NCBI RefSeq assembly: GCF_004010195.1
Contig: NC_057719.1
Coordinates: 20,163,433-20,227,432, forward strand
DNA length: 64,000 nt
Origin: Chiloscyllium plagiosum
Lineage: Eukaryota
Direction: 5' to 3'
The position numbers were made by a program, and so were the translations under genes. Shown here in pieces: positions 2,006 through 62,034 of the stretch. The notes under the pieces were generated by a model. The model saw nothing but the letters and a program-made list of their open reading frames with translations. It did no database searches and was not told where the DNA came from. How positions within the stretch are numbered: the first letter of the stretch is position 1; each line of letters opens with the position of its first letter.

Positions 2006-3087
2006 GTGAGATAGTGTTCCATCCTTAATAAGTGTATCATTATCTTTGATTCACTGGTTAAGGCACAGCATGAGTGTAAGCAAGTGATGCTAAGGGTACC
2101 CATAAAGTGATGCAGAGACAGGTGTACCAGTAAATGAATGTGAATAGTGAGTGATCTCTTCACTTTCCCTGTAAGGGCTAGTGCCTAGAATCAGGATGAA
2201 ACCTTTGCAAACAATTACTTCTTGTGTGGTCTGAAAATCAAAGCCTTTTTTTAAAAAAGATGTGACAAATAAAGCAAACATATTTTAATAATAGCTAAGA
2301 AGAATTAAAGGGTGATGGTTGTAAGTTGAAGTGAAGATTTTAAAAATGCTTTTGATCTTGAGTCGAAAAAAGAGCTGTGTAGTCATTTTAATACAGCATG
2401 GTTCATAAATAAAAGATTAGAAATGGTTTGTCATTGAAGGGCAGTGTAGAGATTTTATAGAGGGGAAATTCTGAATAATAACTGACCAAGAACTAATGCT
2501 ATCAAAGAGTTTCAGGGAGCACTTTGTACCTGAATTGTCTTTTTAGCTGAAGCTTGTACAAAGACAAGGGAATCCATTGTAACTTCAATGAAATTACTAT
2601 TAACATGAAGCTTGGCATATGATCAAGGTATGTACTATTCACAGCACAATTTGTTGAGGTCAATGTAGAACACAGGACAGACAATTATACATTCTCTCTG
2701 TAGGGCAAAATAAAATTATAAGCTGCATTTCACTGTGCAGTATAAATTTGTGACGTTGTCTTCCTTTCATAATTTTCATGTTTCAAATATAGTGGAATTG
2801 AACAGTGACTAAAGCAGGTGAAGTTGTTGAATACTGCATTTTTATACCTGGCTTTTCCCTGTCCAAGTACAATAAAAGGCATAGCGACTCAAGGGAGTAT
2901 TGGAGTACCATGTTTTAGAACACACAAAGCATTGTCCTTTCAGATTTATGTTCATCAAGGTGAGATAAATCAATGTTAGGGAAAGAAACCACTGCTTTCA
3001 GTTTTGTCCCTGTGAGCAGAAAGCATTTCTAGTGCCAAATCATCCACTGACTGAAGTTAATGACCTACTCATCTGTCCAGCATTAGT

Positions 3088-3261
3088 AGAAAGTGAGGAC
3101 TGCAGATGCTGGAGATCAGAGTCAAAAAGTGTGGTGCAATAAAAGCACAGCAGGTCAGGAATCCGGGATATTCTTTTGAAGAGCTTAAGCTCGAAACGTT
3201 GATGTCCTGCTCCTTGGATGCTGCCTGACTGGCTGTGCTTTTCCAGCGCCACACGTTTTGA
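3088..3261. mobile_element. Fold-back PLE mini-insertion with 15-bp TSD
   Basis: Inverted PLE terminal-repeat arms; ctgtccagcattagt at 3073-3087 and 3262-3276; hammerhead remnant gagcttaagctcgaaacgtt at 3181-3200. Confidence 0.85.
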
Positions 3262-4079
3262 CTGTCCAGCATTAGTCCTGAGTAAAAACACAGAGGCTGT
3301 CTTAGTATTGTTCTTAAAGGGTTCATAAGTCTGTTGATACAATTTTAATGCTGTTGTTACCACTTTCAGAAGTTCAAGTCCATCCCAATTTTTTTCAGTC
3401 CCATACCAAGGAAAGGTTCATCATTATTTTTAATCAGATTTCTAATTATAGACCTATTCATTTATGACATCAATTAAAGACTTCAGTTATGCAGCTGAAA
3501 ATTTTCCACTCGCTTCACTTGTATTGTGTTCACATTCAGGGATCAGAAATGAGACAGCCCAAAGTATCATTCAATCACAATCTATTTTAATGTCCAATCA
3601 ACAAATTTTTTCTTCAATGCCTATACTCAATCCACTTTACCAATTAGTTTGTCGACAAAAGGCTTCCGGAACTTGAGATTATGATGTAGTTTATAATCAT
3701 GAATAACTGGTCTGCTTTGTGGGTTCCTATACATATTTAAAGACATTTATATGTCTCACCTATTAAACACAATATACACAAAGCCCTCAGTATAAATCTC
3801 CAAGAGTAGTTTTCTCACTACTTACAGTGAGGTAGTGTATTTTCTGCATTTTTACAGAGTAGATTATGCTACACTAAAACCCATTTCTTCTTTCAGGATC
3901 ATCACATCAACATGTAAAATGATTGCCATCCAGACTCAAAATTTTAACTTGCTCTCCCTCCATGGATGCTGTTTGACCCAATCTGATCACCAGCATTTGT
4001 TGTTTTCAAAACATGAGACAACTTTATTGAGTGTGAATAAGACTGATCTCTGAATGTGAATAGGAATGGGACAGAACCT

Positions 4080-4825
4080 AGAGTTATAGAGTCATAAAGC
4101 ATAGGGATAGACCCTTCAGTCCAAAAGGTACACACTGACCATGATCCCAGATTAAACTAGTCCCACCTACCTACACTTGGCCCATATCCCTCCAAACATT
4201 CCTATTCATGAACTTATCCAAATGCGTTTTAAACATGCTAACTGTATCTGCATCCACCACTTCCTCTGGCAGTTCATTCCTCATATGAACCGCTCTCTGT
4301 AAAAATGTTGCCCCTCATGTCCACTTTAAATTTTTCTCCTCTCACCTTAAAAATATGCCCCCTAGTTTTGAACTTTCCCCTCCCTAGAGGAAAGTCTCTT
4401 GTCATTCACCTTTTCTATGCACCTCGTGAATTTATAAACTTCTAAAAAGTCACCCCTCAACCTCCTGTGCTCCAATGAAAATGTTCTGAGACTTTCCAGT
4501 CTATTATTATATCTCAAACCCTCTATTCCTGACAAAAACTTGATGAATCTTTTCAGACCATCTCGAGTTTAATAGTATCTTTTCTGTAATAGGACGACCA
4601 GGATTACACACGGTACTCCAAATGAGGCCTCACCAAAGTGAAGGAACCTCAACATGACATCACAACTCCTATACTCAAAGTTCTCAGCATTAAAAATAAG
4701 CTTTAAACATCTTCTTAATCACCCTGTCTACCTGTCAACCAAATTTCAAAGAATTATGTACTTAAACCTGTTGATCTTTCTGTTCTACAACCCCACCCAT
4801 GGCCCTAGTGTACTAATCTTCTGTT
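4080..4825 (-). mobile_element. CR1/HER1-type LINE 3' fragment
   Basis: Reverse complement of the CR1 3' region and tail (agagtcata..., ccaccacttcctctggcagttcattcc). Confidence 0.85.
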
Positions 4826-5462
4826 CATTGAAGAAGGTGTTTGGTATGCTTTCCTTTATTGGTCACAGTATTGAGTACAGGAGTTGGGAGGTCATGTTGC
4901 AGCTGTACAGGACATTGGTTAGGCCACTGTTGGAATATTGCTTGCAATTCTGGTCTTCTTCTTATCAGAAGGATGTTGTGAAAAGATTTACAAGGATGGA
5001 GCCAAATTTGGAGGATTTGAGCGAGAGGGAGAGGTTGAATAGACTGGGGCTGTTTTCCCCGGAGCATCGGAGGCTGAGGGGTGACCTTACAAATGTTTAT
5101 AAAATCAGGAGGGACATGGATAGGATAAATTGACAAAGTCTCTTCCCTCGGTTGGGGGAATCCAGAACTAGAGGGCATAGGTTTAGGGTGATGGGGAAAG
5201 ATATAAAAGAGACCTAAGGGGCAACCTTTTTGCGCAGAGGGTGTTATGTGTATGGAATGAGCTGCCAGAGGACGTGGTGAAGGCTAGTACAATTACAACA
5301 TCTAAAAGGTATCTGGATGGGTATATGAATAGGAAGAGTGTGGAGACATATGGGCCAGATGCTGACAGGTGGGGCTAGATTGGGTTGAGACATCTGGTCA
5401 GCATGGGCAGGGTGGACCGAAGGGTCTGTTTCCATGCTGTACATCTCTATGACTCTATGACA
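4826..5462 (+). mobile_element. CR1/HER1-type LINE 3' fragment
   Basis: LYRTLVRPLLEYCLQFWS...RRLRGDL; (ctctatga)n tail at about 5445-5460. Confidence 0.9.
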
Positions 5463-5609
5463 CTCAGTAACTATGGAGAAAATAATAGATTTTTCAATGA
5501 AGGCATTGTAAGATAGTCTAATTAAGTTAACCTTCAAATAATCTTCATCAACGGAATGCACTTGATAGAAATCACTCCTTTTATTCTTCACAAATCACTG
5601 CCTGGTTTT

Positions 5610-6908
5610 AGCTGAAAATGTGTTGCTGGAAAAGCGCAGCAGGTCAGGCAGCATCCAAGGAGCAGGAGAATCGACGTTTCGGGCATGACCTCTTCTTCAG
5701 GAATGAGGAATGTGTGTCCAGCAGGCTAAGATAAAAGGTAGGGAGGAGGGACTTGGGGGAGGGGCGTTGGAAATGAGATAGGTGGAAGGAGGGTAAGGTG
5801 AGGGTGATAGGCCGGAGTGGGGGTGGGGGCGGAGAGGTCAGGAAGAAGATTGCAGGTTAGGAAGGTGGTGCTGAGTTTGAGGGTTGGGACTGAGNNNNNN
5901 NNNNNNNNNNNNNNNNNNNNNNNNNNNNNNNNNNNNNNNNNNNNNNNNNNNNNNNNNNNNNNNNNNNNNNNNNNNNNNNNNNNNNNNNNNNNNNNNNNNN
6001 NNNNNNNNNNNNNNNNNNNNNNNNNNNNNNNNNNNNNNNNNNNNNNNNNNNNNNNNNNNNNNNNNNNNNNNNNNNNNNNNNNNNNNNNNNNNNNNNNNNN
6101 NNNNNNNNNNNNNNNNNNNNNNNNNNNNNNNNNNNNNNNNNNNNNNNNNNNNNNNNNNNNNNNNNNNNNNNNNNNNNNNNNNNNNNNNNNNNNNNNNNNN
6201 NNNNNNNNNNNNNNNNNNNNNNNNNNNNNNNNNNNNNNNNNNNNNNNNNNNNNNNNNNNNNNNNNNNNNNNNNNNNNNNNNNNNNNNNNNNNNNNNNNNN
6301 NNNNNNNNNNNNNNNNNNNNNNNNNNNNNNNNNNNNNNNNNNNNNNNNNNNNNNNNNNNNNNNNNNNNNNNNNNNNNNNNNNNNNNNNNNNNNNNNNNNN
6401 NNNNNNNNNNNNNNNNNNNNNNNNNNNNNNNNNNNNNNNNNNNNNNNNNNNNNNNNNNNNNNNNNNNNNNNNNNNNNNNNNNNNNNNNNNNNNNNNNNNN
6501 NNNNNNNNNNNNNNNNNNNNNNNNGTAGTCTAGGTAGCTGTGGGAGTCGGTCGGTTTATAGTAAATGTCTGTGTTGATTCAGTCACCCGAGATAGAAATG
6601 GAGAGGTCTAGGAAGGGGAGGGAGGAGTCTGAGACGGTCCAGGTAAATTTGAGGTCGGGGTGGAAGGTGTTGGTGAAGTGGATGAACTGTTCAACCTCCT
6701 CGTGGGAGCATGAGGCAGTGCCGATACAGTCATTGATGTAGCGGAGGAAAAGGTGGGGAGGTGGTGCCAGTGTAGCTGAGGAAGATGGACTGTTCCACAT
6801 ATCCTACGAAGAGACGGGCATTGCTGGGTCCCATGCGGGATCCCATGGCTACTCCTTTGGTTTGGAGGAAGTGGGAGGATTGGAAAGAGAAGTTGTTCAG
6901 AGTGAGGA
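5610..6908 (-). mobile_element. Penelope-like element (RT core plus terminal repeat), spanning an assembly gap
   Basis: Reverse strand LTLNNFSFQSSHFLQTKGVAMGSRMGP and FLRYINDCIG (YIDD motif mutated to YIND); terminal repeat with hammerhead motif at about 5668-5705, helix II mutated. Confidence 0.9.
5895..6524. other. Assembly gap (N run)
   Basis: Run of N. Confidence 1.
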
Positions 6909-7805
6909 CTAGTTTTAACTGGTTTTAACTGGTTTTTGTAAAGAAAATCCAGCTTTGTTTCAAACCTTCAATAAGGTTACTGGTAAACCAATTTAACACA
7001 TATCAGTTGCAACATTTTGGTTGCAATGGGGATATTGACTGGTAGTCACAGAGAATGCTGCATTGCCTCTTATTGGGAAGGCCTCTTGCATCTTGTTCTA
7101 GGGCCCAAGGGGTGAAGACACTGCCTACCAAGAATTACCAAGCAATCAATGTCATCACCATCAGGATGTCATGGCTGCTGCCAGTAAAACACCCACCAAA
7201 GTTCCAGGGTCATCACTGGATCACTTACTGAATGGGTGAGTAGATGAACAATGAGTGATCGGAGTTGAACGGATCAGTGGGTGGGTGACAGTAGGTGAAT
7301 GAGGAAAGTGGGTAGGATGGAGGGGTGGAAAGTGGGTAAAGTTTCAGGTGGTTAGAGAAAAGCTCTTGAGAAAGTAGGTCAGGAGGTAGTCAGATGAGGA
7401 GGAATAGTGAGGTCTGGTTGGAGGGACTATTAGATAGTGGAAATAGTCAGGTCTAGTCCTTGTAATAGCTGAGTGGTTAGGAGCTCTCAACAAGGGGTCA
7501 GACATGTAATGAGGGAATAGGGCTGAGTATTTGACAAGTCAATTCCAGAATTATGCAGGAGTTCAAATTAGACTTTTATGTGTCATGATTCCTGAGTAAC
7601 CATTCCAGTAAGTCCTACAAAATTTTCCTCAGTCTCGGACCTTGGCTCAGAGTCAGAGGCTTACAAAGCAAGTTCTGGGGAGAAACGGAATTGTCCATCA
7701 CAAGATTAAATGTCCCAAGAGTCTTCACATTTCAAAGACTGGAATATTTGGGCCATTCTATACTTCTGTAAGAAGCACATCCATTCTTCGAAACTTCATT
7801 TTTTT

Positions 7806-9018: not shown

Positions 9019-9078
9019 TACAATTATTAGATGAATATGGCATCAATACAATTATTAGATGAATATGGCATCAATACA
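9019..9078 (+). repeat. Perfect 28-bp tandem duplication
   Basis: tacaattattagatgaatatggcatcaa twice, plus taca. Confidence 0.95.
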
Positions 9079-10280: not shown

Positions 10281-11041
10281 TCGGTTTTACCTCAAGTATG
10301 GAGAACGCAAACAATAAGGTTCACAATAGCAATGTTCATCTGATTTGTTTTTATTCAGGTTTTTCAATATTTAGTTTATTTTGTTTTGTATAATATGAGC
10401 TGAGAGTTTATTAAACAATGTTAAGGTATGTGGGTGATAACAGTAAATAACCATTTATTTTGTTCATGTTTCACATCAATGAATTTATACTTCATTTATA
10501 AGCAAAGGATGTTGCAAAGAAGAGCTTTCCCATAAAATTTATTTGACTTATTTATGGAATGCTAAGAAAAGCATGAAAAAAATATAAATTTGGGGACATG
10601 TATCCTCACCATTTTTCTTGAAATCTATTATTTAGAAACTTACCAACTTGAGGTTATTTATCTGAGACTTTTGTCAGCTACAGTCAGTATAAGGAGTGGA
10701 TATATTAAGACCATAAAAAAAGAGAAACCTGAGTCGGCTGTTGGCTCCTTAAGACGACTCCATCAAATCAATAGGATCATGGCTGATCTAACTTTCGTCA
10801 CGTTCACTTTTGTGTGTTTTTCCCCATAACCCTCAATTTCCTGACTGTTCAAGAATCTATCTACCGCAGCCTTAAATGCACAAGGAAACCATGCTGATCA
10901 GCATGATAATAATGTCCAGTTTCCTACTCCGAGGTTATTTGAAAAGGTCAACACCAGGGAATTGCACCTCAATGCCAATTAATGCTGACTGTCTGCGATT
11001 GTTACTGAATGTCCAGATGGACCTGCATCCTAAGATGACCA

Positions 11042-11182
11042 AAACAAGAACATAAATTGCTGAAGAAACTCAGCAGGTATGGCAGCATCTTTGGATAGAA
11101 AGCAAAGTTAACGTTTCAGATACAGTGACCTTTCTTGTTCTTGTTTTGAATTTCCAGCATTTGCAGCTCTCTTTTTTTAACC
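11042..11182. mobile_element. PLE family-2 mini-insertion with 13-bp TSD
   Basis: cctaagatgacca at 11029-11041 and 11183-11195 flanks gaaactcagcagg..ggcagcatc..gttaacgtttc; short inverted end. Confidence 0.75.
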
Positions 11183-11374
11183 CCTAAGATGACCAGTTTC
11201 TTCAAAATATTAGAAAATGAAGCAGGTCACTTCGCCCCAGAGACTGCTCCACCATTCATTTAGATCATGGATGATCATGGAACTTTGCTCCATATTCTCC
11301 GGTATTCTTATCTCATAAAATCTCTCAATGTTGACCTTGAAAGCTCCAGTAATTGCCACATCCGCAGCATCTTC

Positions 11375-11650
11375 TGTATTCCCAATTGTGGGTGTCACTG
11401 GCTAGGCCAGCACTTATTGCCCATTTCCGGTTGTCCAGAAGGCAATCAAGCATCAACCACATTGCTGTGGTTCTGGGATCACATGTCCGCTAGGATGGCA
11501 GCTTTCCTTCAATCAGTAGGGTCATCATTTGACTAGTTTTTAATTGAACTCAAATTGTTGGGTCACACACCCATGACCTCATAACATTAGCCTGGGGTCC
11601 TATGTTATCAGACCAGTGACAGTACCATCATGCTATTGCGTGACCCTCAT
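11375..11650 (-). mobile_element. tRNA-derived SINE family B
   Basis: Reverse complement of the family seen at 47508 and 59370 (ggccagcacttattgcccat; caaccacattgctgtgg). Confidence 0.7.
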
Positions 11651-12695: not shown

Positions 12696-14440
12696 GTAGA
12701 GTTGACTGTGGAGAAAGATATGGAAGCTATGGAACTTGGGGAAATAAATAGCAATATCTTGAAAAATGTCCATATTATGGAGGAAACAATGCTGGGTTTA
12801 TTAAATCGCATAAAGGTGGATAAATCCCCAGGATGTGATCAGGTGTACCCTGGAACTGTGTGGGAAGCTAGGGAAGTGATTGCTGGGCCCCATGCCAAGA
12901 TATTTGTATCATCGATAGTCACAGGTGAGGTACTGGAAGACTAGATGCTGGCAAATGTGGTGTCGTTATTTAGAAAAAAATGGTAAGGGAAAGGAAGAAA
13001 ACTATAGACCAGTGAGCCTGACATCAGTAGTGAAAAAGTGAGGAACAGGATTTACATATATTTTGAAAGGCAAGGACTGATTAGGGATAGCTTTGTGCTT
13101 GGGAAATCATGTCTCATGAACTTGCTTGAATTTTTTGAAAAAGTGACAAAGAGGATTGATGAAGGCAAGAGTGGTAGACATGATCTATATGGACTTTAGA
13201 AGTGTTCGACAAGTTTTTTCATGGTAGATTGATTAGCAAGATCAGCTCACATGGAAAATAGGGAGAACCAGCCATTTGGATACAGAACTGCCTCAAAGGC
13301 AGAAGACAGAGGGTGGTGGTAGAGAGTTGCTTTTCAGACTGGAGGCCTGAGACCAGTGGTGTGCCACGAGGATCGGTGTTGTATCACTGTTTTTCATTAT
13401 TCACATAAATGTTTTGGAAGTAAACATAGGAGGTAAGTTTGCAGAAGACACAAAAATTGGTGATGTAGTCAACAATGAAGAATATTGCCTCAAAGTACAT
13501 TGGGACATTGATCAGATGGGGATGTAGGCCAAGGAGTGGAAGATGGAGTTGAATTTAGATAAATGTGAGGTGCTGAATTTTGGAAAGGCAAATTAGAGCA
13601 GGACTTACATACTTAATGCTAAGGTCTTGCAGAGTATTGCTGAACAAAGAGACCTTGGAGTGCAGGTTCAGAGTTCTTTGAAAGTAGGTTCACAGATAGA
13701 CAGGATAGTGAAGAAGGCATTTGGTATGTTTGCATTTACTGGTCAGTGTATTGAGTACAGGAGTTGGGATGTCATGCTGTGGCTGTACAGGACATTGGTT
13801 AGGCCATTTTTGGAATATTGCGTGCAATTCTGGTCTCCCTGCTAGACAAAGGTCTTTTCCACAGGGTGCAGGAGTCCAAAACTAGAATCACAAGGGGATA
13901 CAATTTCATGTTGATTGTGGGAAGGTTTAGGGGAGATGCCAGAGAGTGGTGGGTGCGTGGAATGCATTGCCAGCAGTGGTAGTAGATTCAGATACAATAG
14001 GACAATATAAGTAACTCTTGGATAGGCACATGGAAGATAGTACAATGTAGGTTAGTATGATCTTAGAGTAGGATAAAAGGTCGACACAACATTGATGGCT
14101 GAAGGAACTGTACTGCGCTGCACTGTTCTATGTTCTATGCTCGATGTAGAGGGCATAGGTTTAAGGTGAAAGGGGAAAGATTTAAAAAGGACTTAAGGGG
14201 CAATTGTTTCATGTTGAGGGTAGTGCATGTATAGAATGAGCTTCCAAAGGAAGTAGTGGAGGTGGGTACAATTTCAACATTTAAAAGGTATCTGGATGCT
14301 TATATTAACATGAAGGAGTTAGACAGATATGGGATTAGCTAGCAAATTGGACTAGATAAATTAGGATATCTAGTCAACATGAACGAGTTGGGCCAAAGGG
14401 TCTGTTTCCATTCTGTACATCTCTATGACTCTATGACTGA
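12696..14440 (+). mobile_element. CR1/HER1-type LINE, 5'-truncated, with a nested second CR1 3' end at about 13890-14146
   Basis: KVDKSPGCDQVYP and QRDLGVQVQSSLKV...LVRPFLEYCVQFWSP; tails (ttctatg)n at about 14126 and (ctctatga)n at about 14421. Confidence 0.9.
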
Positions 14441-14444: not shown

Positions 14445-14582
14445 CAATACCCCATTGGTCCTCACCTACCACTCTACCAACCTCCAGATACATCGTATCA
14501 TCCTTCGTCATTTCCGCCACCTCCAAACAGACCCCACCGCCAAGGATATATTTCCCTCCCCTCCCCTATCAGCATTCTGGAA
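14445..14582 (+). mobile_element. PLE ORF fragment (linker between RT and GIY-YIG)
   Basis: PLVLTYHSTNLQIHRIILRHFRHLQTDPTAKDIFPSPPLSAF, homologous to the PLE at 56056-57048. Confidence 0.85.
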
Positions 14583-14899
14583 TGACCAGCTCTTGTAACC
14601 CTTGTATTTGTATGTTGATTTGACTTCAAGTTCTGGTAAATGGTAACCCTTGTGATCTGAACGGTGGGCGGATTCAGTGTCAGCCAGTATTCCATTAATA
14701 TTTTGAATAAGAGCTGCTATCAGTGAGTCTCATCTGGCGGGAGTACATTCTCTCTACAATGATTGTCAAATTCTGACTGGTAATTTCGAAGGATTGATCC
14801 TGTTATGCCAGTATTGTTGATTTAAACAAAAAAGATGCAATTTGTCACAGCACTCAGCAACAATATGTCATCGAATACTGAACGTCCTGAACGAAGAGA

Positions 14900-15192
14900 T
14901 TTGGCCTTCCTAAACTGCAATCTTCTTCCTGACCTCTGCGCCCCCACCCCACTCCGGCCTATCACCCTCACCTTAACCTCCTTCCACCTATCGCATTCCC
15001 AACGCCCCTCCCCCAAGTCCTTCCTCCCTACCTTTTATCTTAGCCTTCTTGGAACACCTTCCTCAGTCCTGAAGAAGGGCTTATGCCCGAAACGTCGATT
15101 CTCCTGCTCCTTGGATGCTGCCTGACCTGCTGCGCTTTTCCAGCAACACATTTTTCAGCTCTGATCTCCAGCATCTGCAGTCCTCACTTTCC
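14900..15192 (+). mobile_element. PLE terminal repeat (pLTR), well-preserved copy
   Basis: Near-identical to the reverse complement of 5610-5870; ends ctccagcatctgcagtcctcactttc. Confidence 0.9.
15065..15100 (+). ncRNA. Minimal type I hammerhead ribozyme motif, core intact
   Basis: agtc CTGAAGA a GGGC ttat GCCC GAAA cGTC gatt: catalytic boxes, 4-bp helix II, palindromic ACGT helix III, GUC triplet, 4-bp helix I. Confidence 0.75.
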
Positions 15193-15830
15193 CCCATTAT
15201 CAGCATCTTGGAGATTACCATTAACCAGACATTGAACTAGACAACCCATATAAGTACTGTGGCTCAATACTAGGTCAGGAGGTGTATAACGCACCTCTGG
15301 ATTCTTCAACACCTGGCACAGGTCAGGAGTATGGCGCAATGCTCCCAACTTGCCTTGGACAAGTGTTGTTGCAAAACCTCTCAAGACACTCAACACCATT
15401 CAGGACAAAGCAAACTGTTTGGTTGGCACTGTACGTTTAACACCTCCAACGTTCACTCCCTCCACACCAACATACAGTGGTGGCAGTGTGTCGTATCACA
15501 GGCTGCACTGCAGCCACTCACCAAGGCTCTTTAGACAATACCTTCCAAATCTATGCCATCTGTTTCTTAGAAGGAAAGGAATAACATTTCCATCAAAACA
15601 CTACCACATTCAAGGTACCCTCCAAGCCACACACTTTTGTGTTGCTTAACCATATCGCATCCCTTTGTTGTCTCTCTATCAAAATCCTGCACTCTCTCCC
15701 TAAAAGCACTGGGTGTGTTCTACAGACTGAAGACAGGTGACTACTGGCTTGTCATGTGCAATTAGAGATAGACAATGTATGCTGTCCTAGCCAGCAACAC
15801 TCACATCTCAGGCATATATCAAAACAAAAC
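15193..15830 (+). mobile_element. LINE family B, 3' part of the copy split at 12695
   Basis: Resumes at cccattatcagcatcttggagattaccattaaccaga, collinear with the uninterrupted copy at 50385-51190; 3' end gcaattagagatagacaa..ctagccagcaacactcacatc plus A-rich tail. Confidence 0.75.
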
Positions 15831-17128: not shown

Positions 17129-17479
17129 ATTCCTTTGTTGTCCACCACCATCAGTTACACTAAATTCTAATGTTTTCGTACCTCTTCAAAGGTACCTCCA
17201 TTGTGAAGAACCCTTGAGGTCTCCTCCATGTTTCAGCAACATCCACTATTACTGGTAGCAATGCTAAGCTTTCAGAACTCTCAGTTTTCTTATTACACTA
17301 AATAGGAGACTGCCTTTTGTAAAATCCTCAAGTCAGTGCTACATCCAGCAAGTGTGGACTCAGAGCTCTCTCTTCAGTGACATCAGAGACCTGAAGCCCA
17401 TGAAAGAACTTAGCCAATTGTGTTAAATTGTATCATCCTGAATTTCTCCCTTGACTGAGTTAAGTTAAGTAAGCATGAG

Positions 17480-17670
17480 GGAGAAAGTGAGGGCGACAGA
17501 TGCTGGAGATCAGAGTCAAAGAGTGCGGTGATGGGAAAGCACAGCCGGTCAGGCAGCATCCGAGGAGCAGGAGAGTCGTTGTTTCGAGCATAAGCTCTGA
17601 TGAAGAGATTCTCTTGCTTCTCGGATGCTGCCTGACCAGTTGTGCTTTTCCAGCACCACATTCTTCGAAC
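17480..17670. mobile_element. Fold-back PLE mini-insertion with 15-bp TSD (1 mismatch)
   Basis: ttaagtaagcatgag 17465-17479 and ttaattaagcatgag 17671-17685; inverted arms; centre has hammerhead halves on opposite strands (tttcgagcataagctc, ctgatgaagag). Confidence 0.85.
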
Positions 17671-17754
17671 TTAATTAAGCATGAGTCAGTCATTTCTCAT
17701 TTTCCGATGAGATGTGAGCTTCACTATGAAGACTAACATTTTTTTTCCTTTCAG

Positions 17755-44812: not shown

Positions 44813-45654
44813 GTAACACCACAATTTGAATTACCTACTTAATAACCAACGATTGTTTCCTGGGAAATTGTGGTGTCAATATGCTTGCCACATAAGAATA
44901 CAAAATGAATTGTTGAAACAGAAATCATTTCTGAACAGTACAATTATCTCCAAAAGACTTTTTACATCACAGCAATGGAACACAAATTGACAAAATGAGA
45001 CTGCTTCTGGTTGTCAGTGAAGTGAGATCACAGAGACTGGCAGAAAACCAAATCTAGTTGATAAACTCACAATGAAAATTGTCAGTAGATGGCAGCAAGT
45101 TCATATAATACAACTTTAAATCTGAGGTACAAATGCAGGTGACAGAAAGCTATAATAAAGAAACATTTGAAATAAACTTTTTTTAAAAATATGAGCAAGA
45201 AGAAAGAAAGAAAATATGGTTCAACTTTTACTGAAGTAATAGATCCTTAGTTAACTTAGGGACATTTGACGAATCTTTTTCCATGGTGCATGACTAACAT
45301 CATGAGAGTTGCTAATGAGCTATAAAAAGTCCTAATTAGCCCCAAGAGATTTCCATCATTAATAATTAAAAGCTTGTCCACACTTAATAATTCTAGGACG
45401 GTGAATAATAATTTTACTGTCCGATAATGTGATAATTCACAACAATGATACTTAAGATGATCAAGATTCAGAGGTGACATTGCTCCATTCATTAGTTGCT
45501 GGATGGTTCTATTTAATTACTGTGAATATAGTTTTGTTCTCCTTCCTCTTCCTATGGAATAGAGCATGACACATCTATCCACTTGGGTTACCTGAGCTGT
45601 TGCTGCATCTTTTCAATATTCTCCTTTTGACATCATCTAATAGTGTATAACTTG

Positions 45655-47507: not shown

Positions 47508-47898
47508 AGGAGGCAGTGGCGTAGTGCTGATATCAATGGACTGGTAATCCAGAGACCCAGCCTCATGTCCTGGTGACTATAAGTTCAAATCCCACCAAGA
47601 CAGTTGGTAAAACTAGAATTTCATTAAAAGTCTGGAATTAAAAACTAATCTAATGGCAACCATGTAACCATTACCAATGGTCATAAAAACCCATTCAGTT
47701 CACTAATGTTCTGTAAGAAAGAAAATACACTGTCCTTATCTAGTCTGCTCTTGCTGCGATTCCAGCTCATGAGAGCTCCACTCTCCACTATCCTTCGAAA
47801 TGGCTTTCAGAAACACTCAGCTCAAGGACCACGATGGATGGATCACAAGTCCAGTCCTTGCCAGCAATGCCCATATCCCATACAAGATTAAACAAAAG
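47508..47898 (+). mobile_element. tRNA-derived SINE family B, near full length
   Basis: ggaggcagtggcgtagtg (A box), gttcaaatcccacc (B box), 3' end ccagcaatgcccatatccca plus A-rich tail. Confidence 0.85.
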
Positions 47899-50384: not shown

Positions 50385-51190
50385 ATGTTTGCACCACCAA
50401 AATGCCAGGCAATGATCATCTCTAATAAGAGAGAAGTAGAAACTTTTGCTCCTTGATGTTCAACGCCATTACTACCATTCAATCCCTGACTGTCAACTTC
50501 CTGGGATCACCATTGACCAAAAGCTAGACAGGACCAGCCATATAAATACTATGGACACAAGAGTAGCTCAAAAGCCAGGAATCCTGCAGTGAGTAACTCG
50601 CTTCCTGACTTCCCAAACTTTACCTGCTATCTACAAGGCACAAGTCATGAGTGTGCTGCAGTACTAAATATACTCAAGAAACTTGACATCCAGGACAAAG
50701 CAACCATTTGATTGGAACCACATTCGCAAATGCCCTCTACTATCAACCCTCAGTAGCACCAGTGCTTGCCATCTACAAGATGCACAGCAGAAATTCACAA
50801 AGGCTCCCCAAGTAGCATCTTTCAAATCCATGAGCTGTACTATCTAGAGTAAAAACAGAGAATGCTCAATAGACTGAGCATGCTTGGCACCATTTAAGAA
50901 GAAACAAACAGAGTGAAAGTTTTGACTCCAATGTGATTACTTTGACTAGGAACATTAACTGTTTCTCTCTGCACAGATGCTGCCAAACCTGCTAAGTTCC
51001 TCCAGAAATTTCTGGGTTTTATTTGAGATTTTCAGTATCTGCAATATTTTGCTTCTAGCTTGTGCCAATTAGATGGCAAAGAGTAGCATATGCATGGGGA
51101 AAACACCACCTGCAAGCTCCCCTCTAAGTCACTCACCATCCTGACTTGATAATATACCAACAATCTGTCAGTGCCATTGGGACAAAGTAC
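50385..51190 (+). mobile_element. LINE family B fragment with nested PLE family-2 fold-back (about 50850-51058)
   Basis: tgccaggcaatgatcatctctaataagaga..ttcaacgccattac..catataaatactatgg..ctacaaggcacaagtca. Confidence 0.75.
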
Positions 51191-51510
51191 TGCAGTTGCT
51201 GGAAATCTGAAATAAAAACAGCTACTGGAGAAACTCAGCAGTCTGGCAGCATGTGTGGAAACAGAAACAGAGTTAATGTTTCAAGTCAAATTTGATTTTT
51301 ACTTCAGAACTATAGGAACATATCAGATTCAAAATATTAACTCTGTTTCTCTCTCAGCAGCATTTGGTTTAGTCTCTTTGGGGTTTCTAAAGCTGTTGGA
51401 TAATGTATCACATAATAGACTTGCAAGAAAAATTGAAACCCATGGGATTAATGGGGCAATGGTTGGAAGGATAGAAAATTGGCTAAGCAACAGAAAGTTG
51501 TGGTAACTAG
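51190..51510. mobile_element. PLE family-2 fold-back (about 51190-51357) followed by a CR1 RT fragment
   Basis: gaaactcagcagtctggcagc..cagagttaatgtttc and aatattaactctgtttctctc; then DNVSHNRLARKIETHGING..IENWLSNRK. Confidence 0.7.
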
Positions 51511-52779: not shown

Positions 52780-55500
52780 TATACGAAATAGGAACAGGAG
52801 CAGGCCATTTAGCCATTGAAAAGGATTGTGACTGATCCAACATTCCTGATGTCTACTTTCTTGTCCTTTCCCTGAAGGCCTTGATTTCCATAGTTGCCAA
52901 TAATCTATTTATGACAACCTTAAAATGTACAATGTACCAGGAGATCTCTAGCAAGGACTTCCAAAGACTCTCAACAGTCTTAAATTGATGCCCTTTTATT
53001 CTGATACTGTGCCCTCTGGTCCTCGACTTTCCAATGAGAGGAAATACCCTCTTAGCATTTACTCCATCAAGCTCCTTAAGAATCTAACATGTCTCAACAA
53101 GATCACCTTTTAGTTTTCTAAGTTCCGATGAGTTGAATCCCAATCTGTGCAATCTTTGTTCATATAACAGTCTCTCCAATCCATTTTGGTGAACCTTCTC
53201 TGAAAACTCTCCAATGAAATGATATCTTTCCTTAGAGAAGGGAAACCAAAACAGCTCTCAGTTTTCCAGATGTGGCCTCACCAGCATGTTGTACAGTTGC
53301 ATTAAAACTTCCCTGGTCTTTTACTGCAAGTTCCTTTGCATTACAGTTTTCTGTAATATTTCTCCACTTAAATAATATTCAGTTCTTTATTCCTCCCTTC
53401 CAAAATGAACATCTTCATATTTTTCCATGCTCTGTTTTCCAAATCTTTGCACATTTACTTAAAGTATCAGTACCTCTCTGTAAGTTGTTTATCCATCTTG
53501 CAACTTGTCTTTCTGCCTATTTTTGTACTGTCTATAAATTTGGCTGCAGTATATTCACATCCTTCCTCCAAATCATTAATATATATTGTAAACAGATGCA
53601 GTCCCAGCACTGATCCCTGTTGAACTCCACAGGTTACAGGTCACCAACCTGAAAAGGAATCCCTTATCCTCATTGGTGGTTTCTTGCACAACAGCCAGTT
53701 CTCTATGTCAATTTATTACTTCCAATGTCATAGGATCTCACCTTATGATTTAATGTTTTGTGAGGTACCTCATCAAATGTCTTCTGGAAGTTCAAATACA
53801 ACACATCTGCTGGTTTCTCCATCCCTCTGGTTGGAAGTTCCTCAAATCTCTTATAAAATTCATCATGCATGATTTTCCTTTCATGAAGCCATGCTTGATT
53901 AGATTAGATTTTCCAACTGTGCTGTTATTATTTCCTTAATAATTAATTCCAACATTTTTCCAACAAGTATTTGGTTTATCATAACCCCTTTTTTGCCTCC
54001 CTCCCTTTTTATAAAAGAGTTTCATATTGGTTGTTCTTCAATCCTCCACTTATCCAGAGTCCAAGGACTTTTATAAATCATAACAAATGTATCCACTATC
54101 TCTATAGCTTTTAGGATCCTAGGATTCAAGCCAACAAGGTCAAGAGTGTAGTGCTGGAAAAGTCCAGCAGGTCACACAGCATCCGTGGAGCAGGACAGTC
54201 GATATTTCAGGCATAAGTCCTTTATCAGGAAACCATCAGGGTCAAGGGACTTTGTTGCTTTAGTTCCATTAGTTTGTTTAATATTACTTCTCCAAAGATG
54301 GTGATGGTATTTAATTCCTTCTCCTGTATTCTTTGGTATTGATGGAATGTTCAAAGAATATTCCACTGTAAAGTTGAAAGCAATATATCTATTTAACTCT
54401 TGTGCCATTTCCTTGCACCTAAAATCTCCTGGGATTCATATTTTAAGGAGTCTAAGTTCATTTTGATAGCTCTTTCTTTTTTATATATTTAAAGAAGATC
54501 TTCTTGTCAGTTTTAATATTCTTTGCTAGTTTGCTCTTGAAATTTATTTTCTCCCTTTTTATTATCATTTTAACCTGCCTTCTCTGGATTCTGAATTTAT
54601 CCTGATCCTTGAAGTTTTCATTGATTTTTACCTCCCCAAATGCATTTTCTACAATTTAGTATTCTCCTTAATTTCCTTGGTTAGCCATACTTGGCTGATT
54701 TGTCTTTTTAGAATCTTTCTTCCTTACTAGTATATATTTTCGCGGATGGTTATAAATTACATCCTTAAATGCCTACCACTGCTTGCTTACCATCTTTCTG
54801 CTAATCTATGTGCACAGTCTATTTTAGCTAACTTTGTCCTCTTTTCATTGTAATTCCCTTTCTTTAAGTTAAACAGACTTACTTCCAACCTAAGTTTCTC
54901 ATATTCAAACAGAGTTTATTAAATTTTGTCATGTTATGATAACTATTTTCTAAGAGAGCTTCTACTCTGAGATAATTTATTAAACTGGCCTCATCATCTA
55001 TTGCCAGATCTAAAATAGTTAATCCCCCAATTGACTCCATGACATATTTCTCTAAGAAACCATTCCCAATGCACTCTATGAATTGATTGTCATAGCTACC
55101 TTTTCAAATTTGATTAATCCAATCAACATGAAAATTAAGTTATCCATAATTATTGCCCTAACTATTTTGCATGCTTCCATTATTTGGTGATTGATACCCT
55201 TTCCTACAGTGTGATTACTGTCTTGGGATTTATACACTACTCCTACCAATGTCTTCTTTCCTTTGTTGTTTATTTCCTTCACCCAAGTGGATTCTACATT
55301 ATCCAAGTTTAGACCATCTCCTTCAACTGTCCTCATTTCATCTCTTATCAATGGTGCTACTCCAACACCACTTCCCTGTCTTTATGAAAGTTAAAATATC
55401 CCTGAATGTTAAGTTCCATGTTTTGGTCTCCTTGTAACCCAGTATCCATAATGGCTATGAGATCATATCCATTTGACTCAATTTGTTCTGAGATATGTAC
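52780..55500 (-). mobile_element. Old CR1 LINE (endonuclease to 3' end), with nested PLE arm at about 54145-54232
   Basis: VESTWV..KGKKTLVGVVYKS, MAQELNRY and KSLDPDG on the reverse strand; CR1 tail at the left end. Confidence 0.85.
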
Positions 55501-56146
55501 AGCAAAACTGTGCCATAGACCCTGGAAATATTTTGCATGCCAGCCAACAGTTTTTATACTGCTGGAAGTTCATTAAGCAAGAAATAATTGGATTCTTGTA
55601 ACAAGAGCTAGGTAACAAGCATGGTCTTTAATCTTCATAGAGTTTGAACAAAACAAATTGGCAAAGACAGTATCAAATTAGCTATTGGCATAACTTTGCA
55701 AGTTTCCTAAAACAAGATAAAGTGGAACCAATTACGGATAAAACAATTTGCACCCTATATTATGTATTTAAGAAGATGTAATTGGTAATGTCAAAGTAAA
55801 AGATCCTCTGGTAAAAAGAGATTACAATGCAATTGGATTCTATCTTACATTTGAGTGATGCTCCTCCATTGCAAACAGGAACCTTGAAAGTAAACAAATC
55901 CAATTATATAAGAATGATTAGATTAGGCTAAGGTTTATTGGGCAATAGAATAAATAGTAGTGCAGTAAGCCTTGGGTACTAAATAGTTAAAGAAACAGTC
56001 TAACATGTTCAACAAAAATACACTCCATAAAAAGAACTCAGCAATCAAGAACCATGGGGTAAAAATAATGACTGCAGATGCTGGAAACCAGATTCTGGAT
56101 CAGTGGTGCTGGAAGAGCACAGCAATTCAGGCAGCATTCGAAGGCA

Positions 56147-56184
56147 AAATCGACGTTTCGGGCAAAAGCCCTTCATCAGGAATA
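56147..56184 (-). ncRNA. Minimal hammerhead ribozyme motif, core intact
   Basis: Reverse strand CTGATGA a GGGC tttt GCCC GAAA cGTC; helix I only about 2 bp. Confidence 0.65.
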
Positions 56185-56223
56185 AAGGCAGAGAACCTGA
56201 AGCGTGGAGAGATAAGCTAGAGG

Positions 56224-56647
56224 NNNNNNNNNNNNNNNNNNNNNNNNNNNNNNNNNNNNNNNNNNNNNNNNNNNNNNNNNNNNNNNNNNNNNNNNNNNNN
56301 NNNNNNNNNNNNNNNNNNNNNNNNNNNNNNNNNNNNNNNNNNNNNNNNNNNNNNNNNNNNNNNNNNNNNNNNNNNNNNNNNNNNNNNNNNNNNNNNNNNN
56401 NNNNNNNNNNNNNNNNNNNNNNNNNNNNNNNNNNNNNNNNNNNNNNNNNNNNNNNNNNNNNNNNNNNNNNNNNNNNNNNNNNNNNNNNNNNNNNNNNNNN
56501 NNNNNNNNNNNNNNNNNNNNNNNNNNNNNNNNNNNNNNNNNNNNNNNNNNNNNNNNNNNNNNNNNNNNNNNNNNNNNNNNNNNNNNNNNNNNNNNNNNNN
56601 NNNNNNNNNNNNNNNNNNNNNNNNNNNNNNNNNNNNNNNNNNNNNNN
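56224..56647. other. Assembly gap (N run)
   Basis: Run of N. Confidence 1.
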
Positions 56648-57961
56648 NGGGTGGTAGGGGGGCGTGGACCTGACCAGGTAGTCACGGAGGGAACGGTCTC
56701 TGCGGAGAGGGGTGGGGAGGGAAATATATCCCTGGTGGTGGGGTCTGTTTGGAGGTGGCGGGAATGTCGGCGGATGATTTGGTTTATGCGGAGGTTGGTA
56801 GGGTGGAAGGTGGGCACCAGGGGCGTTCTGTCCTTGTTGCGGTTGGAGGGGTTGGGTCTGAGGGCGGAGGTGCGGGATGTGGATGAGATGCATTGGAGGG
56901 CATCTTCAACCACGTGGGAAGGGAAATTGCGGTCTCTAAAGAAGGAGGCCATCTGGTGTGTTCTGTGGTGGAACCGCTCCTCCTGGGAGCAGATACGGCG
57001 GAGGCGGAGGAATTGGGAATATAGGATGGCATTTTTGCAAGAGGTAGGTGCTTCTGTTTTTTTTTATTACCATGCAGATCCACCTCACGTATGGTTGGTA
57101 TGGTTCTTGACTTACTCAAGAAGTTAAGAATAGTGTTAAGTTAAACAAAGAAACTTATAATATTGCAAAGGATAATAATAATGCTGAGGATTGGGACAGT
57201 TTCAGAAAGCAGAAAAAAAGCAATAAAATAAAAGTTGATTTAAACGTTTAAACAAAGATAAACTACATGCAAATACATTGACAAATTTTAATGATTCTAA
57301 AGAAGAGTCACATCAGACTCAAAACATTAATTTTGTTTCTTTCTCCACAGATAGTGCTAGACTTGCTGAACATTTTTCTGTTCCGATCTCCAGCATCCAG
57401 AGTAATTTGCTTTGACTAAAAAAGACTAGGGAGCTTTATGCAATTAATATCAGTAAAGAAAAAAGTATTGCAAAAACTTGAAATGAAATGGCAACAATAT
57501 AGCCTGTTTACACACTGTAGGGATTCTACTATTCTATGAATTCTCCAAGATCTAATAATTTACGCGAAAGATTCTAAAAGATGTATTTGCAAAGTCAGTA
57601 GATGCATTGGTAATAATATGTTAAAATTCACTAGATCCAAAGTAGTCTGAGCAGATTACAAGTGAATAAACATAACACAGGCATTTAGGAAAGGAAGAAG
57701 GTAAAAGAAAGGAAGAGATCAGACCATCAGAAAGTGCTGGAATTATTATTAAGGGAGTCTTAACAATGCATTTGAAAATCATAGTGTGGATAGGGTTGAC
57801 ATGACAACAAGGTGGCAAAAGTGAGGTGGATCTGCATGGTAATAAAAAAAAAACAGAAGCATACAATATTTATTTCAGGCAATAAATTTCTGAAGGTTGA
57901 TGTTCAGTGAGAGAGGTGGATATACAAGGAGCAGAAAAGGTTTAAATGCAGATATAGCCAG

Positions 57962-58297: not shown

Positions 58298-58655
58298 AAA
58301 CATTCAGTCACATGATGAGGGCATCATTGGCTAAGCCAGCATTTACTGCCCATCCCTAATTGCCCACTGGGCAGTTAAGAGTCAACCACATTGCTGTGGG
58401 TCTGGAGTCACATGTACCAGACGATGTAAGGATGGCAGTTTCCTTCACTAAATGACAGTAATGAACCAGATGGTTTTTTTCTGACAACCAGCAATGTATT
58501 AAAGGTTGCCGTTAGACTATGAAGTCCAGATATTTCTTAAATTCAAATACCACCATCCTCTGTGGCAGGATTCGAACCTGGGTCCCCAGAACTTTGCCTG
58601 GAACAGTCTCTGGATTAACAGTCCAGCAATAATATCACAAGGCTATTGCCTCCCA
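58298..58655 (-). mobile_element. tRNA-derived SINE family B
   Basis: ccagcatttactgcccatccctaattgccc..ggattcgaacc. Confidence 0.85.
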
Positions 58656-59369: not shown

Positions 59370-59885
59370 GGGAGGCAATGGCTTAGTGATGTTATTGCTC
59401 TGTTGTTAATCCAGAGATTTAGGTAATGTTCTGGGGACCTGGGTTTGAATCTTGCACGGTAGATGGTAGAATTTGAATTCAATAAAAATCTGGAATTAGG
59501 AGTCAAATGATGACCACGAATCCATTACCAATTATTGGAAAAAGGTAGTCAAGCAGGACACTGGAAGAACACAGCAAGCCAGGTAGCATCAGGAGGTGGA
59601 GAAGTCAACATTTCGGGAGTAACCCTTCATCAGAAATGTTGACATCCTCACCTCCTGATGCTGCCTGGCTTGCTGTGTTCTTCCAGCCTTCTGCTTGTCT
59701 ACCTTGGAACCCATCTGGTTCACTAAAACACTTTCAGGAAGCAAATTGCTATCCTTATCTGGTCTGGTCTTCATGTGACTCCAGACCCACTGCAGTATGG
59801 TTGACTCTTAACTGCCCTCTGGGTAATTAGGGATGGTAATAAATACTGGCCTGGCCAATGATACCAACATCCAATGAATAAAAAA
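59370..59885 (+). mobile_element. tRNA-derived SINE family B, interrupted by a PLE fold-back
   Basis: Head ggggaggcaatggcttagtg; end ggtaattagggatggtaataaatactggcc..catccaatgaataaaaa. Confidence 0.85.
59541..59703. mobile_element. Fold-back PLE family-4 mini-insertion with hammerhead motif
   Basis: Inverted arms ctggaagaacacagcaagccagg and cctggcttgctgtgttcttccag; reverse strand CTGATGA a GGG ttact CCC GAAA tGTT at about 59601-59636; ttggaa on both flanks. Confidence 0.85.
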
Positions 59886-59889
59886 TATT

Positions 59890-60440
59890 TGAATAAGGGG
59901 CAGGGCAATTAGGACTGGAAAAAAAAGTCTACACTTAGAGGGTGATGATGGTCTATTCCAGAGGCCTGTAAAAGATCAATCATTGGGTATATTCAAGACA
60001 TAAATTGATAGATTTCGGGATATAAATGATATTAAGCAATATGAAGATCATGGAGAAATGACATTAAGTAGATGATCAGCCACAATCTGTTTGAATGACA
60101 GAGCAGGCTCAACTGGTCAAATATTGCACCCCTGCTTCAATCTTCAAGAATTTAAAACATGAAGAACATTTCAGGATATGGGGTGTATCATTTAAGACTT
60201 GGATGAGAGCTTTCGTAACTCAGAGAGTGATGCTTCTGCATAATGGTCTAGCCCAGAGAGTTATCGCTGCTCCATTGTTGAGCATACCTGACTTGAGGCA
60301 GTTAGATGTTTAATTCTCTCAGGAAATTGAGGAATATGGGAAGCAGGTGGGCGAATGCATTTGAGAAGATCATTGAAATCCTTGCTGAATGGGGAAGCGG
60401 TCTAAATGGGCTGAATAATCTACTCCTGTATTTATTTGTG
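59890..60440 (+). mobile_element. Old CR1 3' ends
   Basis: gatcagccacaatctgtttgaatgacagagcaggctc; gaatggggaagcggtctaaatgggctgaataatctactcctg. Confidence 0.6.
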
Positions 60441-61776
60441 CTTAATCTCACCTTCCACACCACTAGGTCCGATGTCACACTCGTTTACAGTTTTTCTCAA
60501 CTCCGTTCTTGCTTCCTCCCAAAGAAAAATGCATGTTCCCCTCCACTTGGCTATTTGAACAAACCATTCCATTTATGATACCATGATTTACTTTATCTCC
60601 ACCTTTACAATCTTCTCTCCTTCACTACTGTTTTTTTAAAAAAAGATTTGCAACACCTGTCCCTTTTATTTCCTGTAGCTGCCAAAACCCTTCATGAGGG
60701 TTATAATACTTTCCATGTCCTTCATTGTTACTTACTGCTCTTGTAATCAGTATTTAAAGTAATGACCCCACTTTCACACATTTATAAAAATGACAGAATT
60801 AATCTGAATTTAGTTGAAGGCTGTTTTATATTCAGACCCAATTGACTTGAAATGATTTCTTGCCTTTCACATTTCTTCTTTCCCCAAGTGCAAACCCAAG
60901 CTTCTTACTAGTTTCCACTTCTGTTCCTTATCTCAATCTCATTCTGATCTCTAAGTCTTTGTCTCCTGAACTGTTCCTTTAAAATTTGTAGACCTTTGCA
61001 GTCACAGGAAGTGTTGGTATTGTAGAAGAGATGCAGTGGGTTTTCTGTGGAGGGCAGGATTAATGATAAGTTTGTGCTGGTGACATCTTGCAATGAAGTG
61101 TGCAGTGTTGATAATCAGACAACTAAAGGAATTGGAAAATTGAGGGATAAAGTATCACTGCACACAATTTGTCCCTAGCAAAATTTTATTGTTACATAAG
61201 ATCCATAAAATGTAAGAGAAAACGTTAAAACTTTTGCTGTATATCCATTCACACTTATTGTGGATAATGTCACAAAATGAATGAATCATCAAGGTTACCG
61301 AAACCAATTTCTAGCTGTAAAGTCAGACAGAATATAATCACTTCAATGTTCCCTACTCAGGGTCAAGCACAACCAGCTGCTAATTGAACTGAAGTCCTTG
61401 TCTTTGTGAAAAGTAATTTTGGATGGATTCTAATGCTGACATCTAAACCTGATTGGTTGTACTATTTCTTTAAATAGACAGTTGAACTTTGACCTGTGTT
61501 CCATATACCAGATGGCTACAAGCCATGCATGGTCAACTTTGAGTTTTGCACCAGATGTGCTAATCTCTATTGGAGTGGAATCCCACTAGCCTCCCAGTGA
61601 AGCTAGAGATATTGAATATTTCATGCACAGCTGCCACAACAGCTGTAATTGATGTTGCCAATTTAAATCATGAAATGCATGTGTTGACGACTTGATTTAG
61701 CAGCTTAATTGTGAATTGTGTTAAAACTTGCTGCACTTATTCATCATCAGCATGGCAATTTTCCATTTCCGATCAA

Positions 61777-61875
61777 AGTTGAAACTTTATTGCTGGAACA
61801 GCACAGCAGGTCAGGCAGCATTCCAGCAATAAAGTTTCAACTTTGATCTCCAGCATCTGCAGACTCACTTTCTCC
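61777..61875. mobile_element. 99-bp fold-back PLE remnant with 15-bp TSD, no ribozyme
   Basis: tccatttccgatcaa at 61762-61776 and 61876-61890; perfect 28-bp inverted repeat 61771-61798 and 61821-61848. Confidence 0.9.
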
Positions 61876-62034
61876 TCCATTTCCGATCAATCTTGCGCAT
61901 CCAATGACCACCATCCACTTATTTAACACAAGACATAGTTACTGAAATTAGTCTCCCCGACAGATTTATTCACAATATTTATTCGCTTAGAAATTCTGCA
62001 TGATTCTAACTAATGTGATATACATTGTTTTATT

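Follow-up and report, generated by a model that had tools for sequence, protein, structure and literature searches.

Insertions of endonuclease-positive (EN+) Penelope-like elements (PLEs) show a characteristic layout, drawn in Fig. 2 of Craig 2021 (PMC8557442) as an inverted, 5′-truncated copy with a tail of 30–40 nt at one end; the same layout, accompanied by target duplications of 8–10 bp and palindromes at the junctions, is described for rotifers by Arkhipova 2013 (PMC3846280). The Poseidon protein of Anolis cuts and extends both target strands in vitro, using two start sites that bound the tail, and is predicted to be a dimer (Frangieh 2024, PMC11167929); that work found no RNA ends at the ribozyme cut in vivo. 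Opposite-strand pairs of hammerhead motifs lying 100–700 bp apart have already been noted in the PLEs of metazoans (Cervera and de la Pena 2014, PMC4209133). Here, we analyse eight short inserts made from PLE terminal repeats in a 64,000-nt stretch of Chiloscyllium plagiosum DNA from contig NC_057719.1 (the window; G+C content 39%, two N gaps). Taken together, they amount to ordinary PLE debris in the published layout, not to one hairpin family, and are probably one-off, extremely 5′-truncated insertions of several autonomous PLE families.

Layout of the inserts and their target duplications

A first-pass annotation of the window had listed eight insertions of about 100–580 bp. All eight are confirmed at their coordinates, with sizes of 99–575 bp, and four older fold-backs bring the total in the window to 12; with 13 non-inverted copies, there are 25 loci in 64 kb. 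The fold-backs are listed below without strand, each insert being named by its first position and its range including the flanking repeat.

3073–3276: insert 3088–3261; exact 15-bp duplication (3073–3087, 3262–3276); tailed antisense arm 3088–3159, 18-nt filler, tail-less sense arm 3178–3261 starting inside the hammerhead core
11029–11195: insert 11042–11182, family B; 13-bp duplication; tail-less antisense arm 11042–11134, tailed sense arm 11136–11182; arms overlap by only 11–13 nt
17465–17685: insert 17480–17670; duplication of 10 bp exact, or 15 bp with one mismatch; tailed antisense arm 17480–17598, 10-nt piece of core, sense arm 17607–17670 from the predicted cut site
36116–36708: insert 36125–36699, family D; 9-bp duplication; long tail-less antisense arm, short tailed sense arm 36628–36699
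43449–43849: insert 43464–43834; 15-bp duplication
44594–44828: insert 44610–44812, family C; 16-bp duplication; tail-less antisense arm 44612–44706, palindromic centre, tailed sense arm to 44812
59535–59709: insert 59541–59703, family E, inside a repeat resembling a short interspersed nuclear element (SINE); both arms with a common end point; duplication of 6 bp, which is chance level
61762–61890: insert 61777–61875; 15-bp duplication; tail-less antisense arm 61777–61821, tailed sense arm 61822–61875; no hammerhead; 6-nt microhomology at the tail-less end
18945–19069: older family-B fold-back; tail arm of 26 nt, other arm starting at the core; no clear duplication
40681–40783: decayed family-B fold-back; no clear duplication
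50852–51061: older family-B fold-back; no clear duplication
51185–51360: older fold-back of family B, joined at the hammerhead; no clear duplication

The 18-nt filler in 3088 lies at 3160–3177. The division of the inserts into four sequence families can be kept, or extended to five, according to how they are lumped.

In all eight inserts an antisense arm of the PLE terminal repeat is followed by a sense arm, with the 3′ ends facing outwards (head to head). The earlier description of a repeat joined to its inverted copy is accurate to this extent; that the inserts consist largely of such a pair was overstated, since the paired arms account for 0.87, 0.65 and 0.56 of the length in three inserts, 0.44–0.48 in three more, 0.16 in 11042 and 0.11 in 36125, two inserts that are scarcely hairpins. 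The antisense arm of 36125 contains a mutated hammerhead near 36185–36210, beyond which upstream sequence including a TG repeat continues for about 400 bp.

Positions within the arms were counted from the predicted ribozyme cut (after GAAACGTC), placed by hammerhead rules. In seven of the eight inserts, one arm ends at about +90 to +103, thereby including a tail of 30–40 nt, and the other ends at +58 to +66, without the tail; the tail is on the left in three inserts and on the right in four. Insert 59541 has two like ends, and the window holds no family-E tail for comparison. Each of these seven inserts with a tail arm has a second arm that lacks the tail and holds upstream sequence not present in the tail arm. 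As each arm holds template sequence missing from the other, both were most simply copied from RNA; in the shorter inserts, central deletions after insertion could mimic arms of which neither contains the other.

Target duplications of 9–16 bp flank seven inserts, and in five of these they measure 15–16 bp, in agreement with the clean duplications first annotated; 59541 has only 6 bp. Of 3000 random flank pairs, 57 share at least 9 letters and three share at least 13. The AT content of 11 duplications in the window is 62%, compared with 60%, and thus shows no AT bias. An orthologous site without the insert is available for 43464: in organism C, one of the three organisms compared, a 984-nt contig aligns with 43335–43462 and then with 43864–44668, and the unit is absent as a whole. 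Twenty-three letters stand in its place, where one copy of the duplication would give 15 and two would give 30. The presence of 43464 in organism B would rest on a match of 21 letters inside the insert, short of the 31-letter rule, and is suggestive only. Insert 44610 is present in organism C. The repeat that hosts 59541, which we take to be SINE-like, is dispersed in copies of about 340 bp (59370–59900, 58314–58654, 36873–37117, 47509–47765 and 11387–11556), and the insert is missing from all three paralogues that span the site.

The two kinds of outer end behave as fixed start sites. Tail ends pile up at 43466–43469 in three organisms, with 246–862 contigs per row and unrelated flanks. In nine of nine such rows, a G occurs at one register 14–17 nt outside the junction, often as GGC or GAC (judged by eye; the agreement is only 0.33, and the rows share ancestral copies), and a family-C row shows the mirror image. 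The far end of a 15-nt duplication lies in this register, which is compatible with a stagger of fixed length combined with template pairing or with a preference in nicking. At the tail-less end, target and template share 2, 1, 4, 0, 6, 2, 2 and 1 letters in seven inserts and the long copy 5610, leaving out 59541, which has no duplication. Microhomology of at least 2 nt is therefore found at five of eight ends, with 0.07 expected per end; the placement for 17480 is weak (6/10). The target of 3088 (3073–3087, 3262–3276) resembles the template tail past its 2-nt microhomology, with CCAGCAT as the common run, and this likeness may have guided priming.

Where the arms stop

The inner ends were counted for 37 arms at the 25 loci, leaving out the second lap of 43464. 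Of the 22 arms that extend to −20, 17 have their end within −20 to −39, which is the 5′ border of the hammerhead; the 144 arm-bins elsewhere contain 14 ends. For families with an upstream reference, the figures are 7/12 in this zone and 8/85 elsewhere. One arm ends above +60. Six of the eight inserts have an arm that ends at the border, and six solo copies likewise end there.

The hammerhead motif

Reference copies carry the core of a putative minimal hammerhead in the terminal repeat. A whole core (CTGANGA..GAAA) is present in two of the eight inserts, with motifs at 44702 and 59633:

44675–44702, minus strand: whole minimal hammerhead core in the loop of 44610
59606–59633, minus strand: whole hammerhead core in 59541

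Broken or mutated remains are found in five inserts, those of 36125 lying about 400 bp from its junction, and 61777 has none; the statement that many inserts carry the motif at or near the hairpin loop needs to be narrowed accordingly. A search of Rfam at E ≤ 1 returned no hammerhead; all of the 10 matches obtained fall below their gathering scores, and those to microRNAs were rejected as reflections of the hairpins. Minimum-energy folds of six cores contain stem II in several cases and a full hammerhead in none, as expected for a motif of the dimer type. In an alignment of 11 copies, covariation did not rise above that of shuffles, 137 of 500 being as high, though slid controls were beaten on cells paired.

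Formation of the inserts

The following scheme would account for these features. A GIY-YIG endonuclease would make a staggered cut of about 13–16 nt, as the duplications suggest. Both target 3′ ends would then prime reverse transcription in element RNA, one of them at the end of the tail and the other 30–40 nt upstream, as has been seen in vitro with the element of the anole; the upstream start would be aided by 2–6 nt of target–template pairing. The complementary DNAs (cDNAs) would be short, as copying usually stops at the hammerhead 5′ border; the positions are those of the arm ends, and the simplest cause would be an RNA 5′ end just upstream of the motif, the template being the upstream repeat of the mRNA, inside which copying would have begun. 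End joining would finally unite the two cDNAs head to head, with microhomology or filler at the joint or with the centre of the palindrome being lost later. Such a product would have no open reading frame (ORF) and mostly no whole ribozyme, and it would not multiply in hairpin form. Two additional jumps of the enzyme, from an end at +2 or +4 to an oligo(A) 3′ end, would have taken place in 43464.

Several observations weigh against this account. The RNA data come from a poly(A) single-cell run, about 2 in 100 read (12,955,460 reads) and blind to circles and small RNAs; within it, there is no place where many RNA molecules begin or end, which leaves the third step, the stop at an RNA start, without direct support. 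The −20 to −39 zone was chosen after the data had been seen, the bins depend on one another, and the ends of family B were placed with no upstream reference, so that p-values for the zone are descriptive. The palindromic centre of 44610 fits self-priming equally well, 59541 has its two like ends, and in 51185 one arm lies inside the other. Moreover, among the joints listed (15 of 1268, some uncounted, on which all joint figures rest), three that resemble fold-backs have depths of 292–737, compared with 7–28 for single-copy sequence, and may mean tens of copies.

Alternative explanations

Self-priming would dispense with the second start: a single cDNA or antisense RNA folds back and is copied into an inverted arm, and later deletions at the centre make the arms unequal. 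Such snap-back was proposed for head-to-head palindromes by Arkhipova 2013 (PMC3846280). It agrees with the fact that both arms belong to the same family in eight of eight inserts, and the centre of 44610, a perfect 10-nt palindrome followed by a 32-nt loss, and those of 17480 and 59541, which look trimmed, are suggestive of it. We nevertheless consider it unlikely. To produce 36125, about 450 nt would have to be lost from one arm; in 43464, the tail arm is without the hammerhead in both laps and the other arm has it; and the solo copies 5610, 54139 and 43222 end at the tail-less site, so that priming there is needed in any case.

The first-pass annotation had left the choice between the common end product of abortive PLE insertion and a class of self-propagating, non-autonomous hairpins. 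In the latter case a few fold-back masters would be transcribed and recopied by PLE protein, giving families with fixed junctions, which appears improbable here. No junction is common to two of the 12 fold-backs in the window, four of family A included, and the contig that spans the inner junctions of 43464 has a depth of 9.7, within the 7–27 of its flanks and hence single-copy. This is what the annotation had itself named as evidence against such a class, and six of the eight inserts lack a whole ribozyme. The abortive reading is supported, and it matches the published insertion layout. It is true that terminal repeats suffice for mobilisation in trans (Arkhipova 2013, PMC3846280), that 44610, with the whole core in its loop, folds with a z of −14.9, and that three joints exceed single-copy depth among the joints listed: 44706→44750 (depth 737; one contig, organism A), 44706→44780 (529; two contigs, organism C) and 43657→43767 (292). 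The first two have sides of 22–23 letters, are deemed unreliable and occur in one of the three organisms each; all three are below 0.05% of the summed repeat depth, which runs to millions and is not a copy number. A few small subfamilies with shared junctions may exist elsewhere in the genome.

Transcripts point the same way. The poly(A) run gave 3183 aligned reads on both strands, 305 of them at least 99% alike; those on the repeat continue into unrelated flanking sequence in 98 of 100 cases, again on both strands, as in passive read-through. Among indexed RNA runs, none was listed as containing the sequence. A pattern scan of viral contigs gave 0 matches, and 21 pattern matches in metagenome contigs were rejected as chance, none matching the window beyond 26 nt.

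That the ribozyme cut sets the fold-back point, with cleaved RNA as the usual template, is very improbable. The right arm of 17480 starts at +1 and the left arm of 43464 has ends at +2 and +4, but only two of the 28 arms that reach +4 end at +1 to +4, 26 of the 33 that reach +20 cross the cut site, and mutation of the ribozyme leaves insertion in vitro unchanged (Frangieh 2024, PMC11167929). The fold point is thus near the ribozyme but mostly not at its cut. What had been annotated as a fold-back point set near the ribozyme is correct as a position in six of the eight inserts and reflects where reverse transcription stops, a property common to the solo copies.

Events at the DNA level after insertion, whether two copies came to lie face to face or replication switched templates, can practically be dismissed: copies are dense, at 25 loci in 64 kb, but a single duplication brackets both arms in seven of eight inserts, organism C lacks 43464 as one complete unit, and in every case the two arms come from a single family and stand head to head.

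Mobilisation by a long interspersed nuclear element (LINE) was rejected, as the outer ends are PLE start sites and have no A-tails. Miniature inverted-repeat transposable elements (MITEs) and other DNA transposons carry inverted repeats at both termini and have a fixed duplication length; they were rejected too, one end of the inserts being a non-inverted tail and the duplications ranging from 9 to 16 bp. In annotation, the inserts should not be filed as MITEs, microRNA hairpins or a new element. They constitute a large natural record of a poorly understood reaction, with fixed starts, a stagger of about 15 nt, pairing at the second start and a preferred stop point.

Insert 43464

One insert departs from the others in having a 166-bp head-to-tail repeat within its tail arm, neither tandem unit of which has a core. 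The repeat was not reported by Tandem Repeats Finder. The parts are as follows.

43465–43564, minus strand: first lap of the tail arm, from the tail end to +2 after the predicted hammerhead cut
43565–43571, minus strand: A-run (7–8), non-native, joining ORF codon 9 to the +2 end
43572–43630, minus strand: 59 nt of PLE sequence from downstream of the tail, including the start codon of the ORF at 43597 (MPSLKKLSS); multi-copy depth in all three organisms
43631–43744, minus strand: second lap (43631–43724, ending at +4), second A-run (43725–43730, 6) and the first 14 nt of a third lap
43748–43834, plus strand: opposite, tail-less arm, starting at −25 and passing the cut site uncut

The 59 nt are real element sequence, as MPSLKKLSS matches the starts of shark proteins: MPALKKFSSSLYK stands at the start of P0275, and P0278, P0276, P0038 and P0070 start similarly. 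The template of 43464 thus spanned the junction of terminal repeat and ORF, and the A-run is not native; P0275 continues S-L-Y-K after the matching start, and a native origin of the A-runs was rejected. One contig departs from the alignment at 43572 with nine unlike letters. The two laps have no common derived change relative to the references and therefore date from the insertion or soon after it.

Possibly, though less likely than not, 43464 is a genomic record of self-cleavage in vivo by a minimal PLE hammerhead. In that case, a 160-nt RNA with the ribozyme cut at one end and oligoadenylation at the other, at ORF codon 9, would have been the template of one arm and would have been copied some 1.7 times over, through template jumps or around a circle; another RNA, left uncut, would have served for the second arm, as expected of a dimeric enzyme that carries two RNAs. 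The two A-run junctions differ by 3 nt, which slightly favours distinct jumps rather than a circle. The structure is also explained by jumps after the enzyme had paused at the folded ribozyme, or by chance, at a few per cent for one end, with several ends examined and a single locus. If the cleavage reading is true, junctions like those of 43464 will be countable across hundreds of thousands of shark copies; their enrichment at the cut site would answer whether minimal PLE hammerheads cut in vivo and whether the cut RNA is a template.

Source elements and other features of the window

The PLE copies other than the fold-backs include the following.

5610–6918, minus strand: long 5′-truncated family-A copy, from reverse transcriptase remains to terminal repeat, with an internal N gap, the tail-less end and a 9-bp duplication
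14905–15195, plus strand: 3′ end of family A, tail and whole hammerhead (15069) included; used as the reference for arm positions
56057–57050, minus strand: long family-C copy; coding piece 91% identical to a shark reverse transcriptase/GIY-YIG protein
33273–33760, minus strand: family-E copy linked to remains of a GIY-YIG endonuclease
21451–21607, minus strand: solo family-D terminal repeat that stops some 10 nt upstream of the core; duplication of 13 bp
54139–54230, minus strand: solo family-A terminal repeat, ending at the hammerhead 5′ border
34278, 39106, 43222, 57297, 41084, 8814 and 3931: other solo copies

Long copies that share the end types of the inserts encode reverse transcriptase and GIY-YIG. 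Coding remains at 2–508, 6525–6915, 14449–14595, 33371–33760 and 56648–57048 have at most 91% identity to proteins of Chiloscyllium punctatum and Stegostoma tigrinum, and for the long window copies of families A, C and E the identity to shark proteins is 63–91%; no linked ORF was found within the window for families B and D. A Stegostoma gene model runs past the endonuclease into the region of the hammerhead and thereby links the terminal repeat with the element. The closest shark protein, P0001, 91% identical to a window copy, consists of reverse transcriptase, Cys linker and GIY-YIG; its Pfam matches to RVT_1 and GIY-YIG are both just or well below the cut-offs, and that of P0009 to GIY-YIG is above. 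Two short PLE pieces from the window gave no Pfam match. The linker between reverse transcriptase and endonuclease (CX2-5CxxC) is present in P0001 and in 127 of 141 relatives with an endonuclease motif; its position in the window's own copy is an N gap. Such a linker marks Neptune or Nematis elements (Craig 2021, PMC8557442). The source elements are thus putatively several autonomous PLE families with a Neptune-type linker, as read from relatives and with the same linker occurring in Nematis.

At the 5′ junction of 5610 (6908–6936), a 10-bp unit is repeated about three times, target duplication included, and resembles repeated priming or slippage. Between the PLE thumb fragment 14449–14595 and 14905–15195 lie 310 bp of unrelated sequence; either a single copy has had its interior replaced, or there are two copies. 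At the start of solo copy 34278 (34265–34290) stands a short, imperfect mirror image of its hammerhead core, a possible miniature snap-back. The reverse transcriptase fragment at 2–508 (minus strand), 81–84% identical to shark proteins, runs off the window start. LINE-like reverse transcriptase fragments of another class occur at 25069–25932, 635–1072, 4642–5133 and 13508–14438 (25069–25929 matching RVT_1 at E 5e-20). A near-perfect inverted repeat of 37–41 bp (57049–57093 and 57816–57861, 720 bp apart) adjoins the truncated end of a family-C copy and is possibly a DNA transposon. A perfect 28-bp tandem duplication of 2.1 copies lies at 9019–9078, and 44170–44229 has an aligned depth of 150–1000, with 7–90 beside it, in all three organisms, as a short repeat of lower copy number.

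Comparison with known systems

In the literature searched, which did not include subscription papers or Repbase, we found no short fold-back PLE copies in sharks and no A-run junction at a ribozyme cut. The inserts resemble canonical EN+ PLE insertions (PMC8557442; PMC3846280) in having a head-to-head inverted copy (8/8), a tail at one end (7/8), an enclosing duplication (7/8) and a minimal hammerhead. They differ in being mostly 100–200 bp long without an ORF, in having duplications mostly of 13–16 bp where those of rotifers are 8–10 bp, and in their very dense copies.

The arms of L1 inversions barely overlap, whereas those described here overlap by at most 89 nt, requiring strand displacement or two RNAs. 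The 5′ inversions attributed to twin priming of L1 (Kojima 2010, PMC2912911) are otherwise alike in that both target ends prime on RNA, the duplication is kept and the cDNAs are joined in the middle. Microhomology there is 2–5 nt at the internally primed end, and here at least 2 nt in 5/8; the likeness is functional only. In contrast to L1, there is no poly(A) or A-run at the outer ends, and both start sites are fixed.

Non-LTR (long terminal repeat) retrozymes (PMC7229834; Li et al. 2026, bioRxiv 10.64898/2026.07.22.740005) are likewise non-coding and PLE-related with long target duplications, and the 166-bp head-to-tail repeat of 43464 is a further likeness. Their units are head to tail with a ribozyme in each, whereas the inserts are head to head and the tandem units of 43464 have no core. 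Membership was rejected, the inserts being inverted and having no two units with a whole hammerhead.

With Poseidon (PMC11167929), the inserts share cutting and extension of both strands, events that here would be read from the inserts, as well as two internal start sites bounding the tail and a template that extends over the terminal repeat–ORF junction. The clade differs, the relatives of our inserts having a Cys linker; the Poseidon ORF starts inside the hammerhead, whereas here it starts 135 nt after the cut; and there is no AT bias in the 11 window duplications. Joining of the two cDNAs is not described in that paper.

The motifs agree with the minimal hammerheads of metazoan PLEs (PMC4209133) in their palindromic helix III stub, the one unpaired base before stem II and their occurrence mostly as single motifs in truncated copies; no shark is named in the accessible part of that survey, and most copies here are decayed. 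The cleavage-and-circle route set out there had no evidence in vivo, and insert 43464 may bear on that route.

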